Positions 25,766 through 30,855 of a stretch of DNA of 64,000 nt are shown here, piece by piece. The position numbers were made by a program, and so were the translations under genes. How positions within the stretch are numbered: the first letter of the stretch is position 1; each line of letters starts with the position of its first letter. This DNA comes from Acinetobacter phage EAb13. The notes under the pieces were generated by a model. The model was not told the origin of the DNA. It saw only the letters and a program-made list of their open reading frames with translations, and searched no databases. The stretch lies in the sequence record OQ717042.1; one strand, written 5' to 3'.

Positions 25766-27865
25766 ATGGCTAATGTTATTGACCTTTTTACCAGAAAGAT
25801 TAAAGACCTTCTGGTGGGTTCAGACCTTGGTGCTAACCCACACGTTTTTAAAGATGTAAAGATTCCAGTAGGTAACTTACCTTCCAACTATCGTGACATT
25901 GAAGCTCTTACATTAGAACAAATTTCAGAGCTGGCACTTGGTATGAACCCTAACGGTGGTAACTATTCAGAGGAACCACCGATTGTTTATGAAAATCTGG
26001 TGGAACGTTTCCCTGCAGACTGCTGGACCGTAGATGGTGTACGCAGTATGTCATTCTGTGTGGTCGGTGAAAAGGATGATGGCTTCGATGTTTACTGGAC
26101 TTCACGTCGTAAAAATGACTTTGCTGCAGTCATCTGGTTTAGTGAAGACTTAAACATGCACCCATACCTAGCGTATGAAACTAAGCGTGACTACCGTGGC
26201 TGTACCTTATCATTTTCCATTGACCTAGAAGGTCAAGTACCAAGTATCTCAGACGAGAAGCTAGGCTTGGTTATGACTGTCATGACTGTAAACAGTTATG
26301 GTCAGTTCATCCCTCAATATCTACGCCTTGCCAACTTCGCAGACCCAGCTACATTGACTGACACCCATGCTGACATTACGATCAACTGGGACACGGCCAA
26401 GGCTGGGTTCTATGCCGACACTAATTTCCCCAAAACAAACATCCAACGTATCTTTATTGGGTGCTTAACCAATGGCTTTGACATTGATAGCACTCAACCA
26501 TTGCCTGCAGCAGAAACTGCAGCTATGAAAATCACAAATATGCGCTGCACTGGTGAACAGAGTAAGTTTATCCGTCGGACAATGGCTGTGCCACAGCACA
26601 CGATTGGCATGTGTACCAGTTATGATGATAGCTATAACGTAAACCCTTACCGTATCATCAAGAACTGCTTCATGCTTGGCTATCGCGGCCACGTGAACCA
26701 TTACTGTGGTATGTCTCATTACTACAACCAGAAATGGGATGAGTCACAGCTTCGCTTTGTGGTAACCAAGGTTGAGGACCGACCACAATACAGTCTCATC
26801 AATAAAGAGACTACTTTGTGGCATAAGTACATGGCTAAAGCCTGCAAGAAAATGTACATGCTGCCAATTTTTTCTGTGTCTTATGAAATGTTTTCGGAAG
26901 CTGCAGAATTATCTTGGACTCAACGTGACTGGAACGATAACTATGGCCGTACAGGTTATGAGCCACCAAGTTATTTATTAAGCCCATGTATCCCAGAAGC
27001 CATGAACTGGTTACAGCAAGTATTTATTGAGTTTGCAGCTATTTCTGCGGGTGAAGGGTTAGTACCGCACCTGCAGGTAGGTGAACCATGGTGGTGGATT
27101 AATAGTGACGGTAAACCTTGTATTTATGATTACCCTACACGGGTTAAATTTAATGCTGAGACAGGGTTATTTGCGCCAGAAATCCCTAACCGTATGGACA
27201 CACACTTACTTGAACAATCACCTTACAAAGAATTTGCTGCATTCTTGCGTAAGGAATTGGGTAATTCTGTTGTGGCCGTGCGTACAGCAGTGAAACAGGT
27301 TTATCCAGAAGCATTGGTTACAACACTATTTTTCTTACCTTCCATCTTGGATGAAGAAACCAGTGGTATTGCTTCAACGATTAACTATCCAGTAGAGCAG
27401 TACAAGTACCCTAACCTTGACTTTATCCAGACTGAAACCTATGACTGGTTGATTATTGGTAAATTTAACAAGGCTTTACGTGGTTTTACTTCTGCCATTG
27501 ATGAGTTAGGATACCCACCAGACTTGGTACACTACCTGCTTGGCTTTGTCCCAGATGATTTCTTGGGCAAGCTAATTATCCCTAACTATGATCTTAAAAA
27601 GGACGGGGTAAAGGTCTGGCAGTCTATCATGGGTAATGCTTACCTTGGTAAAGAATACAATGTGGCTAAGCAGTATATCTGGGCATACAACCAAGTTATG
27701 CGTGATGGTCTGGTTATCCAGCCAGAGCTGTTCTTGCGTAAGTTCTGGATATTGAATAGCCTGTATTTGAGTCAGGTCCGTGAAGGTGAAGTGTTGGGCA
27801 CACCAATTGATAACCTCCCTTGGAACCCTGTGCGTCCACCACAGCCAGAAACTCCAAATGTATAA
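25766..27865 (+). CDS. large fibre/tailspike-like protein (699 aa) with conserved N-terminal module shared with 28878 and 29986 proteins
   Basis: N-terminal KDVKIPVGNLP...IEALTLEQISELA module, then NPNGGN linker. The C-terminal domain is rich in W/Y/C (GEPWWWINSDG). Confidence 0.7.
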   Translation: MANVIDLFTRKIKDLLVGSDLGANPHVFKDVKIPVGNLPSNYRDIEALTLEQISELALGMNPNGGNYSEEPPIVYENLVERFPADCWTVDGVRSMSFCVVGEKDDGFDVYWTSRRKNDFAAVIWFSEDLNMHPYLAYETKRDYRGCTLSFSIDLEGQVPSISDEKLGLVMTVMTVNSYGQFIPQYLRLANFADPATLTDTHADITINWDTAKAGFYADTNFPKTNIQRIFIGCLTNGFDIDSTQPLPAAETAAMKITNMRCTGEQSKFIRRTMAVPQHTIGMCTSYDDSYNVNPYRIIKNCFMLGYRGHVNHYCGMSHYYNQKWDESQLRFVVTKVEDRPQYSLINKETTLWHKYMAKACKKMYMLPIFSVSYEMFSEAAELSWTQRDWNDNYGRTGYEPPSYLLSPCIPEAMNWLQQVFIEFAAISAGEGLVPHLQVGEPWWWINSDGKPCIYDYPTRVKFNAETGLFAPEIPNRMDTHLLEQSPYKEFAAFLRKELGNSVVAVRTAVKQVYPEALVTTLFFLPSILDEETSGIASTINYPVEQYKYPNLDFIQTETYDWLIIGKFNKALRGFTSAIDELGYPPDLVHYLLGFVPDDFLGKLIIPNYDLKKDGVKVWQSIMGNAYLGKEYNVAKQYIWAYNQVMRDGLVIQPELFLRKFWILNSLYLSQVREGEVLGTPIDNLPWNPVRPPQPETPNV

Positions 27866-27874
27866 GAGAATGCC

Positions 27875-28876
27875 ATGCCTGAATATACCTTAACACCTAT
27901 CCCAGATATGGCTTTATATGTGGATGGAATCCCAGCGATTGCCCCAGCCAGTAACATTGGGGCTGCAGTCTTAAATGACTTTTACCATTATTTATTGAAC
28001 CCCAGCACTGGTAATAGTGTTGGGGTAACCTTACGTTATGTTCATCCGAGTTCATCTTGGATTCTACCAAATGGTGAACCAGCGCTTTTTAATTTAGGCA
28101 TGGCAGATGATGTGTTCTTTGAGATCATGACTCAGATTAAAGCGTATGCTAAAGCCAATTACTTGGTCACACCTTTAGGTTCTTTATGGGGTTATCTTGC
28201 CACAGATGCAGGTAATTATATTGAAGTGACTGAGGATGAGCTGATTGAGCTTAAACCTCAACTGGCTGTAGGCGCTGGCCGTGAAGTTTATTATCAGTCA
28301 AATCTGGATGAAGATTTTTCTGTGAGTAGTATCTATTCTGAGAAGGGTAAATTTTTATTGCCTGACAGAAAAGATGTATTTCAGGATTATGCTTTTGGTT
28401 CTTTAGAGTTGAATGTTGCGCCAACCACATTAGAATTTAAAATGTGGAAATTGTTGTATGCTATTGATACGGAAGAATTTTTTGTTAAAAGAACAGATCG
28501 TTTTGATCTTGCAAACATTCTTTTTGAAAACAATGTCACTAGAGTATCCTTGGCATTGGACCCACAGAACCGTCCACAAGTAGCCTACACTGCAAATGAT
28601 AAAGTTTACCTGTACTGGTACAGTGAAAATGAATCTCGATACCTGAATATGGAAATTCCAAATGCTAAAAATGCTTACTTGGCTCAAATCAATCCAGCCA
28701 ACTATGCAGATGTAATTTTGGCATATCAGAAAGGTCCAACCTTAGCTTTTCTAAAATATACAGAAAGCTATGAATTTGAAAGGGTTGTGATGAATACTTT
28801 GGATGAAAATTTAGAGCTGTACCAAGCTGGTCTAACCAATACTGGTAAGTTTCAGTGGAAATTTTTAGGAAAATAG
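27875..28876 (+). CDS. hypothetical protein (333 aa), in fibre operon
   Basis: ORF with ATG 9 nt after the upstream stop. Confidence 0.6.
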   Translation: MPEYTLTPIPDMALYVDGIPAIAPASNIGAAVLNDFYHYLLNPSTGNSVGVTLRYVHPSSSWILPNGEPALFNLGMADDVFFEIMTQIKAYAKANYLVTPLGSLWGYLATDAGNYIEVTEDELIELKPQLAVGAGREVYYQSNLDEDFSVSSIYSEKGKFLLPDRKDVFQDYAFGSLELNVAPTTLEFKMWKLLYAIDTEEFFVKRTDRFDLANILFENNVTRVSLALDPQNRPQVAYTANDKVYLYWYSENESRYLNMEIPNAKNAYLAQINPANYADVILAYQKGPTLAFLKYTESYEFERVVMNTLDENLELYQAGLTNTGKFQWKFLGK

Positions 28877-29978: not shown

Positions 29979-29985
29979 GATCAAT

Positions 29986-30855
29986 ATGAGCACAACCAAA
30001 ATCATGACAAGACGAGTGGCTGATCTAATCACCCCGTCTGATTTAGGTGAAAACCTATTAAAATTCAATCAAGTAATTTTACCTTGTGGGCGTATGCCTG
30101 CAGGGTATGAGATCGTTGAGGGTATGACGTTGAGCCAGATTGCAGATGTAATTATTGAACATTTAGATGTTGCTGGCCTTATCCCAGACCTAAGTGGTGG
30201 CGGTACTCCAAGTGAAGGCACACCGACAGATTCTGTCACCTTCAATTACACCTTCAATGATGGGGCCACTATTCCTTTAGATGATGTTGAAATTCTAATG
30301 TTTGATGGTTCTGACACTATGCGTGTAAATGATACCTTCGAGTTAGATCATAACCCATCACAACCTAACTATTTTATGGGTATTACTACTGGACCAAAAT
30401 GGGTGTTCTATAACTTCCATCCAAGTAATGCACCAATTAAGATTGCCATTCGTCTGATTCCTGAAAATCAGAACATGTTACAAAATCTTCAATTGACTGG
30501 AAATACTACTTTCAAATGGAAAGAGGAAAACAAAGCCTATGTAGGAACCTTACTTCCATTCCCTAAACCACAGCTTTCAGATGTAACTTATGACCCTTCA
30601 TCTGGTGTTCATGTACTGATTGAAGGTACTGCTTTGAACCTCAAAGATGGGGCAGAATATGAAGCATATGTCACATTTATGAGAACAGATATTAACCAGA
30701 TGGTGGTTTTACGATCTGCAGACACCATTACTTCTGCAAATAAAAACTTCACTATTGGTGGAGATATCCCAGTAGATATGGGGCCATACTATGTTTCTTT
30801 ACAGCTTAAAGATACCACTGGTTGGCGTGATGTTGTAGAAGCTGAACTACTCTAA
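29986..30855 (+). CDS. fibre/tailspike-like protein (289 aa) with shared N-terminal module
   Basis: NQVILPCGRMPAGYEIVEGMTLSQIADVI module, then SGGGTPSEGTPTDS linker. Confidence 0.65.
   Translation: MSTTKIMTRRVADLITPSDLGENLLKFNQVILPCGRMPAGYEIVEGMTLSQIADVIIEHLDVAGLIPDLSGGGTPSEGTPTDSVTFNYTFNDGATIPLDDVEILMFDGSDTMRVNDTFELDHNPSQPNYFMGITTGPKWVFYNFHPSNAPIKIAIRLIPENQNMLQNLQLTGNTTFKWKEENKAYVGTLLPFPKPQLSDVTYDPSSGVHVLIEGTALNLKDGAEYEAYVTFMRTDINQMVVLRSADTITSANKNFTIGGDIPVDMGPYYVSLQLKDTTGWRDVVEAELL

Follow-up and report, generated by a model that had tools for sequence, protein, structure and literature searches.

The N-terminal domain of T7 gp17, the adaptor-tailspike systems of SP6 and K1-5 and the branched tailspikes of CBA120 and G7C are built on one plan. 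A short N-terminal anchor is conserved, the distal part is swapped horizontally, and several binders are carried by one virion. In phage N4, gp65 is both a 'non-contractile tail sheath' and the receptor-binding protein, and gp64 is the small sheath subunit (PMC13434306). Here, a stretch of 64,000 nucleotides from the Acinetobacter phage EAb13 (record OQ717042.1; the whole stretch is called the window, and its coordinates are used below) was analysed. Positions 25163-30855 of the window probably represent a modular receptor-binding cassette of the EAb13-type Acinetobacter siphophages, with new anchor modules.

EAb13 is an 82-kb virulent siphovirus with long terminal repeats (PMC10508131). With EAb13, Mystique, TCUP2199 and StAb3, the clade includes some of the phages of broadest known host range on multidrug-resistant Acinetobacter baumannii, and these are candidates for therapy. 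The receptor PGR was identified genetically in 2025. StAb3, which shares 96% average nucleotide identity with EAb13, does not adsorb to a pgrD deletion mutant (PMC12507263). The PGR locus encodes NfrB-, WecB- and PgaB-like proteins, like the locus for the ManNAc (N-acetylmannosamine)-based N4 glycan receptor (NGR), and the host ranges reported for EAb13 and for Mystique follow the presence of this locus in intact form (PMC12507263). The phage-side PGR binder was not named for StAb3 (PMC12507263), and none was found in the searchable literature.

Results

The proteins of 699, 366 and 289 amino acids (aa), encoded by the open reading frames (ORFs) 25766-27865, 28878-29978 and 29986-30855, begin with a common module of about 60 residues, here called module A. 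Such a module had been proposed in an earlier sequence-only reading of the window, and it was borne out on alignment. BLASTP gave E values of 1e-10 between the 699- and 289-aa proteins (36% over 75 aa), 8e-6 between the 699- and 366-aa proteins (52% over 27 aa) and 2e-5 between the 366- and 289-aa proteins. A hidden Markov model (HMM) built solely from homologues on other contigs matched exactly these three among the 575 six-frame ORFs of the window, with E values of 3e-27, 2e-21 and 4e-17 at residues 6-63, 11-71 and 8-78. The same outcome was obtained with a broader HMM, both in the window and over the complete genome of Acinetobacter phage fJoAci04. The invariant core of the module is V..P.G..P......E..T..Q. 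Past the N-terminus, pairwise BLASTP of the three proteins gave no significant similarity, which agrees with the unrelated C-termini of the sequence-only reading. The linkers quoted there are also present, the first being short and weak.

25766-25954, plus strand: module A paralogue A1, N-terminus of the 699-aa protein (BLASTP and HMM)
25946-25963, plus strand: linker of the 699-aa protein, NPNGGN, six residues only
28878-29105, plus strand: module A paralogue A2, in the 366-aa protein (BLASTP and HMM)
29103-29153, plus strand: Gly-rich linker of the 366-aa protein, HGGGGSTGGGDDGGEGS
29986-30195, plus strand: module A paralogue A3, in the 289-aa protein (BLASTP and HMM)
30193-30234, plus strand: Gly/Ser/Pro linker of the 289-aa protein, SGGGTPSEGTPTDS

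Two apparent relationships of module A were not upheld. First, the module was considered as a degenerate Calx-beta domain, as 'DITIPVG' of the Vequintavirus homologue stands in the same place as 'DVKIPVG', but the N-terminal stretch alone was not significant. Second, tblastn of module A against GenBank phages gave weak matches (E 1-8) in Vibrio J-like tail proteins and P2-like fibres, which were taken as chance because they are internal rather than N-terminal.

The three genes are not strictly adjacent, contrary to the sequence-only reading, since the gene of a 333-aa protein lies between the first and the second. Neither is the 333-aa protein an unrelated unknown. It shares a second N-terminal module, module B, with a 181-aa protein and belongs to the same system. 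The two N-termini are 30-35% identical over about 115-120 aa (tblastn, E 1e-8 to 1e-9). The module-B HMM matched the 181-aa protein with an E value of 5e-51 and the 333-aa protein with 1e-51, and the homologous region is the first ~125 aa of the former and the first ~130 aa of the latter. Module B, the membership of the 333-aa protein, the cargo-less anchors of relatives and the link to the published PGR receptor were all missed in the sequence-only reading.

25163-25708, plus strand: 181-aa protein, module B at aa 1-128 (25163-25546), then a low-complexity, disordered, acidic and Lys-rich tail
27875-28876, plus strand: 333-aa protein, module B (27875-28270) fused to a Prado-gp44-type distal fibre domain (28373-28870)

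The distal part of the 333-aa protein belongs as a whole domain to phrog_4950 'tail fiber', since aa 167-332 align to positions 24-190 of its 192 positions (E 1e-20). It also matches gp44 of the Xylella phage Prado (E 2e-19), which is the last of four consecutive tail-fibre genes, and separate proteins of 200 aa in L010 and 211 aa in L006 (E 1e-32). L-numbers denote contigs of relatives, and the comparative sample is one phage lineage. The 333-aa protein would be a short fibre, tipped by a domain of the Prado-gp44 type.

In the 699-aa protein, the cargo consists of two NCTSP domains.

26000-27709, plus strand: cargo of the 699-aa protein (gene 25766-27865), NCTSP_N domain 26000-26563 and NCTSP TIM barrel 26591-27709

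The protein is a member of the NCTSP family, as both Pfam models scored above their curated cut-offs. PF23844 (NCTSP_N) matched aa 79-266 with an E value of 3e-31 and 108.5 bits (cut-off 27), and PF23845 (TIM-barrel_NCTSP) matched aa 276-648 with an E value of 9e-89 and 298.4 bits (cut-off 27). The membership was confirmed by phmmer against the PDB entries 9lc0 and 9yf4, where N4 gp64 was found with an E value of 4e-40 and gp65 with 5e-12. Residues 75-321 align to gp65 52-416, and residues 345-651 to gp64 113-410. The two sheath subunits of N4 correspond to one polypeptide in the 699-aa protein and in the Vequintavirus fibres. The motif GMSHY is located at aa 315-319 (26708-26722) and aligns to the 'GMSHY' of gp65. 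It is also found in L010, TCUP2199, fJoAci04 and the fibre Bas56_0033. A 2026 preprint has mapped NGR recognition to this shared domain, in which GMSHY is reported to be invariant (bioRxiv 10.64898/2026.04.02.716166). The 699-aa protein thus has the invariant motif of the NGR-type glycan-recognising fibre domain. The motif GEPWWW, pointed out in the sequence-only reading, is present at 27080-27097 and is common to N4 gp64 and Bas56_0033. The full-length relatives of the protein, with 32-35% identity over 80-92% of the length, are Vequintavirus and phAPEC8-like proteins annotated as 'lateral tail fiber with glycosidase and deacetylase domains'.

An N4-type sheath structure is not found here. 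The protein is a single 699-aa chain, and there is no match beyond about residue 416 of gp65. The phage itself is a siphovirus whose tail tip is lambda-like. The name 'tail sheath' should not be used for the protein, and where fJoAci04 is annotated with a 'non-contractile tail sheath protein', this names the family and not a structural role in a siphovirus. Because an NCTSP protein with GMSHY occurs in exactly the phages of the PGR receptor, the 699-aa protein is the prime candidate for the PGR binder. The TIM-barrel part of NCTSP is also encoded by the unrelated 40-43-kb Acinetobacter phages IMEAB3 (NC_023590) and PBAB25 (MG366115), with 33-37% identity to aa 230-650, and these phages might use the same or a similar glycan receptor.

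The region is 97% identical at the DNA level to fJoAci04 and 88-91% identical to Mystique, TCUP2199 and fJoAci01. The arrangements in the relatives are as follows (protein lengths in aa in brackets).

Window and four GenBank relatives: B (181) - A1+NCTSP (699) - B+gp44-like (333) - A2+cargo (366) - A3+cargo (289)
L010: B (158) - A1+NCTSP (699) - B+repeats (split 110+158) - gp43-like (332) - gp44-like (200) - bare A2 (82) - A3+cargo (345)
L006 and L012: B (162) - B+repeats (274) - gp43-like (330) - gp44-like (211) - bare A2 (72) - A3+cargo (260) - A3'+cargo (208); no NCTSP
L017: B (137) - A1+1007-aa fibre
L019: ... gp44-like - A2+DUF285 (604) - bare A3 (71)
L022, the most divergent: B (123) - A1+1084-aa esterase fibre - 268 aa
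L023: bare B (140) - A2+repeats (240) - gp43-like (305) - gp44-like (197) - two bare A (75, 71)
Bare-module genes (module A 67-85 aa, module B 140 aa): L006 10001-10219; L010 10001-10249; L019 3067-3282; L023 186-608 and 2869-3323

The order helicase, exonuclease, cassette, holin-like genes, endolysin and DNA polymerase is kept in all recovered contigs that reach past the cassette. In the syntenic relatives, the first slot is filled by NCTSP or by fibres of 945-1084 aa, and the second by bare modules of 72-82 aa or by a 604-aa DUF285 protein. Judged from the gene arrangements, every slot of the cassette is a cargo exchange site. The handles are retained even without cargo. Across related phages, the N-termini are conserved and the C-terminal domains are variable and horizontally exchanged. 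The trio of L006 and L010 matches Prado gp42 (C-terminal part), gp43 and gp44. The 333-aa protein of the window is a deletion-fusion of the protein of module B and repeats with the gp44-like protein, by which the gp43-like gene was lost. A comparison of the window with TCUP2199 gave the following identities.

699-aa protein: module 100%, rest 95%
333-aa protein: module 85%, rest 42%
366-aa protein: module 71%, rest mosaic, with one domain relocated and others replaced
289-aa protein: module 81%, rest 85%

A handle is conserved and a tip diverges, and the pattern is therefore typical of receptor-binding proteins. The 699-aa protein is 95-100% identical across five phages of the same broad host range, and this near-invariance fits their common very broad host range. 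In the Mystique record (L002, PQ438181), the orthologues of the 699- and 366-aa proteins are broken by frameshifts at 3768-5868 and 6880-7932. The exonuclease and DNA polymerase genes are likewise frameshifted, and the record holds 154 mostly tiny coding sequences. These frameshifts look like sequencing or assembly errors and not pseudogenes.

The distribution of the modules bears on how they are mounted. The cargo 'YLTSKxYP + repeats' is carried by module B in L006 and L010, where A2 is bare, and by A2 in L023, where B is bare. The equivalence of the two cargoes is marginal by sequence (pairwise E 0.002 and 2e-4) and is supported by gene order, since the same two downstream genes follow the cargo in L006, L010 and L023. 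The reciprocal placement suggests that A2 and B work in one assembly. One possible, though rather unlikely, explanation is that the proteins are on the virion but that A and B co-assemble into a hub of their own, a branched 'Swiss-army-knife' that needs no pre-existing tail adaptor and in which the bare modules are obligatory subunits. The bare A2, A3 or B kept in several relatives and the reciprocal cargo would be accounted for. Three A and two B genes stand in one block in the window, in the complete fJoAci04, in the other three GenBank relatives and in L006, L007, L010, L011 and L012. In all relatives with a sampled upstream flank (L010, L017 and L022), the first module-A gene has a module-B gene directly 5' of it, and L015 starts with a fragment of one. 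However, 'always three A and two B' fails as a rule, because L022 has one A and one B, and the homology of the reciprocal cargo is marginal as noted. In addition, A1-type proteins continue directly into long coiled coils typical of homotrimers, by which an A1-A2-A3 heterotrimer is disfavoured.

An exhaustive HMMER search of 1.84 billion cluster representatives was carried out with a six-sequence module-A profile (E < 1e-3). The profile was matched by 55 cluster representatives, with the module at residues about 3-70 in all but two bacterial adhesins. The two giant adhesins, P0010 (3048 aa) and P0058 (1503 aa), match only through 5-15 partial repeats of profile positions 20-56 and are built of NEW3, DUF11 and SdrD beta-sandwich repeats, so that the match is probably a repeat-driven artefact. 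A resemblance of the 'VKIPAGNFP' core to a sandwich edge strand is still allowed by these matches. The module-A proteins are 67 to 1132 aa long and form two groups, bare modules of 67-85 aa and longer proteins of 150-1132 aa. Many of the longer proteins run straight into coiled coils and the recurring motif 'YPTLAxANA...GLWYKA...YDPLTQAK'. Their distal domains include DUF285/LRR, CotH, BNR sialidase-like, GDSL/SASA esterase, DUF5040, DUF4886 and M14 peptidase, together with phrog_4201 'tail fiber' (E 1e-196), PF27114 Phage_tail_beta and the beta-helix type. No more than 4 close proteins came from a word-indexed search in which the module-A alignment was the query, and IMG/VR gave nothing useful when it was scanned with module A or the exonuclease next to the cassette. 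After A3-type modules, a Cys motif, 'IPECDC' or 'IPDCDC', precedes the Gly-rich linker in the 260- and 208-aa proteins of L006, in the 345-aa protein of L010 and in P0016 and P0027. The 289-aa protein of the window has 'IPDLSGGG' in its place (30180-30200). In a trimer, the Cys motif might serve to bind a metal or to form disulfides.

By its family matches, the cargo repertoire of module A is that of tail fibres and tailspikes and not that of toxins. The architecture of interchangeable receptor-binding proteins that had been suggested from the sequence is upheld, with a conserved N-terminal handle, a flexible linker and exchangeable cargo of the receptor-binding or tail-fibre type (NCTSP, phrog_4201, Phage_tail_beta, BNR, GDSL/SASA and DUF285). 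The sequence-only reading had named a polymorphic effector family as an equal possibility. Such a family of effectors or toxins, joined by a shared delivery domain, is now extremely improbable. It would have the same general architecture of a conserved N-terminus, a Gly-rich linker and variable C-termini, but neither the window proteins nor 37 family members gave a match to a toxin, effector, immunity or secretion-related domain. There are no small immunity-like genes adjacent, the neighbours being fibre-type or lysis genes, and the family keeps to a single syntenic slot in the genomes of virulent phages.

The other two module-A proteins of the window carry cargoes that were found only in the EAb13 clade.

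28878-29978, plus strand: 366-aa protein, with A2, a Gly-rich linker, domain Y (aa 96-222) and an unrelated C-terminal domain (aa 223-366)
29986-30855, plus strand: 289-aa protein, with A3, a Gly/Ser/Pro linker and a beta-rich cargo

They are 100% identical to EAb13_CDS0058 (366 aa) and EAb13_CDS0059 (289 aa). The 366-aa protein is a mosaic, because its counterpart in TCUP2199 has another order, N-module, new domain and domain Y. AlphaFold or Foldseek had been recommended for these C-terminal domains. The AlphaFold2 (AF2) model of the 366-aa protein had a predicted local distance difference test score (pLDDT) of 52 from a shallow alignment, and the fold search with it gave no significant match. 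The 289-aa model had a pLDDT of 43 overall, also from a shallow alignment, with only aa 196-288 at 60-83, where a beta sandwich is formed. Foldseek of this model against PDB returned generic tandem Ig/FN3-like matches only (E about 1e-3, low template-modelling score). The two proteins may carry small beta-rich domains, possibly carbohydrate-binding.

The Ig/FN3-type sandwich raises the question of a location on the capsid or neck. In this explanation, which we consider unlikely, the proteins are decoration proteins, head fibres or whiskers and are not on the tail. Sandwiches of the type that the 289-aa cargo resembles are common in decoration proteins, the cassette is outside the tail operon, and the capsid map of Mystique has unassigned density that was attributed to an unknown decoration protein. 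On the other hand, all cargoes with a known relative are located on the tail there (the N4 sheath, the Vequintavirus lateral fibre, the Prado fibres, phrog_4201 and Phage_tail_beta), and adsorption depends on a glycan recognised by the NCTSP domain family.

The genomic setting of the cassette was compared with that of the complete fJoAci04. Its plus strand carries early and replication genes in the order helicase, 5'-3' exonuclease, cassette, two membrane proteins, muramidase endolysin, tRNA-Asn and DNA polymerase. The entire head-and-tail operon is on the minus strand, with terminase, portal, capsid, tape measure and lambda-like tip. The features around the cassette in the window are listed below.

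25734-25759, plus strand: terminator-like hairpin, 11-bp stem then a T-run, between the 181- and 699-aa genes (consensus scan, weak)
30912-30938, plus strand: terminator-like hairpin that separates the 289-aa gene from the lysis genes (consensus scan, weak)
30932-32451, plus strand: lysis genes directly 3' of the cassette, membrane proteins of 144 and 103 aa and an N-acetylmuramidase endolysin (31633-32451)
51503-55943, minus strand: lambda-like tail-tip genes, J-like central fibre and 341-aa Ig-like/fibre-like protein
51503-52528, minus strand: 341-aa Ig-like/fibre-like protein, matching fibre and decoration families
52554-55943, minus strand: J-like central fibre, 1129 aa (phrog_31 'central tail fiber J', E 1e-78)

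The genes within 25766-30855 are likely co-transcribed, because they are spaced by only 1-9 bases. The terminator scan is weak, with 12 sites against 7.6 +/- 2.7 expected. The endolysin matched Pfam Muramidase (E 6e-38) and also phrog_1224 endolysin. The proposed separation of the cassette from the lambda-like tail module was confirmed by the position of the J-like and 341-aa proteins on the minus strand. The 341-aa protein matches mixed families, Ig-like 'head decoration', 'long tail fiber distal subunit' and 'host range and adsorption protein', and it is a further candidate receptor-binding protein within the classical tail operon. The tape-measure gene (58887-64000, minus strand) is cut by the end of the window, and its listed 1695-aa ORF begins at an internal codon; the gene has 6261 bases (2086 aa) in fJoAci04. 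A tRNA-Asn(GTT) at 32905-32980 was found by ARAGORN and Rfam in agreement (69 bits). An 80-nt 'tRNA-Pyl' with a CTA anticodon given by ARAGORN at 33291-33370 was not supported by the Rfam tRNA model at E <= 1 and is probably a false positive.

The setting could also be that of late proteins with no structural role, such as soluble enzymes that bind or degrade glycans and are set free when the cell lyses. Their shared N-terminus would then have an intracellular role. The genes adjoin holin and endolysin among non-structural genes, and TIM barrels are often enzymes. We regard this as very unlikely, in view of the strictly N-terminal handle followed by a flexible linker, the coiled-coil shafts in many family members, the fibre-family cargoes and the structural nature of the N4 and Vequintavirus homologues.

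Discussion

Homology, modularity, domain families and a conservation pattern are shown here for the genes at 25163-30855. In the receptor-binding reading, modules A (first 60-70 aa) and B (first ~130 aa) would be small, autonomously folding attachment domains. They would fix different distal domains to the virion, most likely to the tail, through flexible Gly-rich tethers. The distal domains would be freely exchanged between related phages with the handles kept, and they would recognise surface glycans, which some of these domains may also process. The N4 gp65/gp64-type TIM barrel of the 699-aa protein most likely binds PGR, the conserved N4-glycan-like exopolysaccharide. The barrel may be glycan-binding only, or may also cleave or deacetylate. 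Binding of the conserved PGR by the 699-aa protein would explain the very broad host range of the clade. Presence on the virion is suggested by the homologues of the 699-aa cargo, which are proven receptor-binding parts of virions (the N4 sheath in PDB 9yf4 and the Vequintavirus fibre). The tail is the most likely attachment site, since those cargoes that have a characterised relative are all carried on the tail in that relative. There, the modules may dock on a tail-tip protein or build a hub of their own.

Several points weigh against this reading. First, module A has no match in Pfam, PDB or a fold search and its AF2 model is poor (pLDDT about 40-50), so that the case for its anchor role is made from position and comparison only. 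It could not be assigned to a known anchor domain, whether of the T7 gp17 type or of another described family or solved fold. Second, the cargo-less 67-85-aa copies of module A are not explained by a simple model of a handle for a cargo. Third, the 366- and 289-aa cargoes have no recognisable family. Fourth, the neighbours of the cassette are replication and lysis genes, and the tail genes are about 20 kb away. Fifth, the published virion data for the clade are an SDS (sodium dodecyl sulfate) gel of TCUP2199 only and a cryo-electron microscopy study of Mystique that covers the capsid and tail tube only. Finally, the evidence for PGR binding by the 699-aa protein is homology and correlation.

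With the cassette lying apart from the lambda-like tail-tip module, it is plausible that the phage has more than one device for host recognition. One would be formed by the lambda-like J fibre and the 341-aa protein, and the other by the cassette. A bolder proposal is put forward tentatively, as a possibility that we would not count on. A and B would be subunits of an undescribed, self-contained hub outside the tail operon, with cargo on either partner or on none. This hub would have given a lambda-like siphovirus its N4-type PGR-binding domain, and the 699-aa protein would determine the exceptional 85-90% strain coverage of EAb13, Mystique, TCUP2199 and StAb3.

The proposed receptor-binding cassette bears on the use of these phages. 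The 699-aa NCTSP protein is now a concrete candidate for the phage-side binder of PGR. The conserved handles and naturally exchanged binding domains provide testable design rules for swaps of receptor-binding domains. The cassette also offers a way into how a siphovirus mounts several different binders. NGR recognition by N4 and Vequintavirus in E. coli is linked with an Acinetobacter siphovirus, across three tail morphologies.

Comparison with known systems

The 699-aa protein resembles the N4 gp65/gp64 sheath (PDB 9lc0 and 9yf4) in both Pfam domains and in the motifs GMSHY and GEPWWW, and the receptor PGR of the clade is made by a locus resembling that of the N4 glycan receptor. The N4 sheath differs in being a heterodimer of 1382 and 417 aa, present in six copies round a short podovirus tube, whereas the 699-aa protein is one chain in a long-tailed siphovirus. 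The 699-aa protein is without the gp65 domains D3-D10, of which the C-terminal D9-D10 bind the tail plug, and it bears the N-terminal module A.

The lateral tail fibre of Vequintavirus and Justusliebigvirus (Bas56_0033; phi92 gp142) shares 32-35% identity over about 90% and both motifs with the 699-aa protein. As a receptor-binding fibre it recognises the NGR glycan, and one phage bears it along with other fibres. In contrast to the 699-aa protein, it has a Calx-beta-like N-terminal attachment part instead of module A, it is located on a myovirus baseplate, and its gene lies inside a tail-fibre cluster.

The 333-aa C-terminal domain is homologous to gp44 of the gp42-gp43-gp44 genes of the Xylella phage Prado and related Xanthomonas podophages. 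The whole trio is retained in this order in L006 and L010, where a repeat-bearing protein is followed first by a gp43-like (E 6e-26 and 2e-28) and then by a gp44-like protein (E 1e-31 and 9e-26). In the window, by contrast, the trio is reduced to one fusion of module B with the gp44-like domain, and the gp43-like gene is absent. The anchor there is module B and not the N-terminal part of Prado gp42.

The T7 gp17, SP6/K1-5 and CBA120/G7C systems share the logic of the EAb13 cassette but have no sequence or family relationship with it, as no Pfam match was found in the N-termini. Compared with them, the EAb13 cassette is distinguished by two anchor types, by genes for bare anchors and by its position unlinked from the tail operon.

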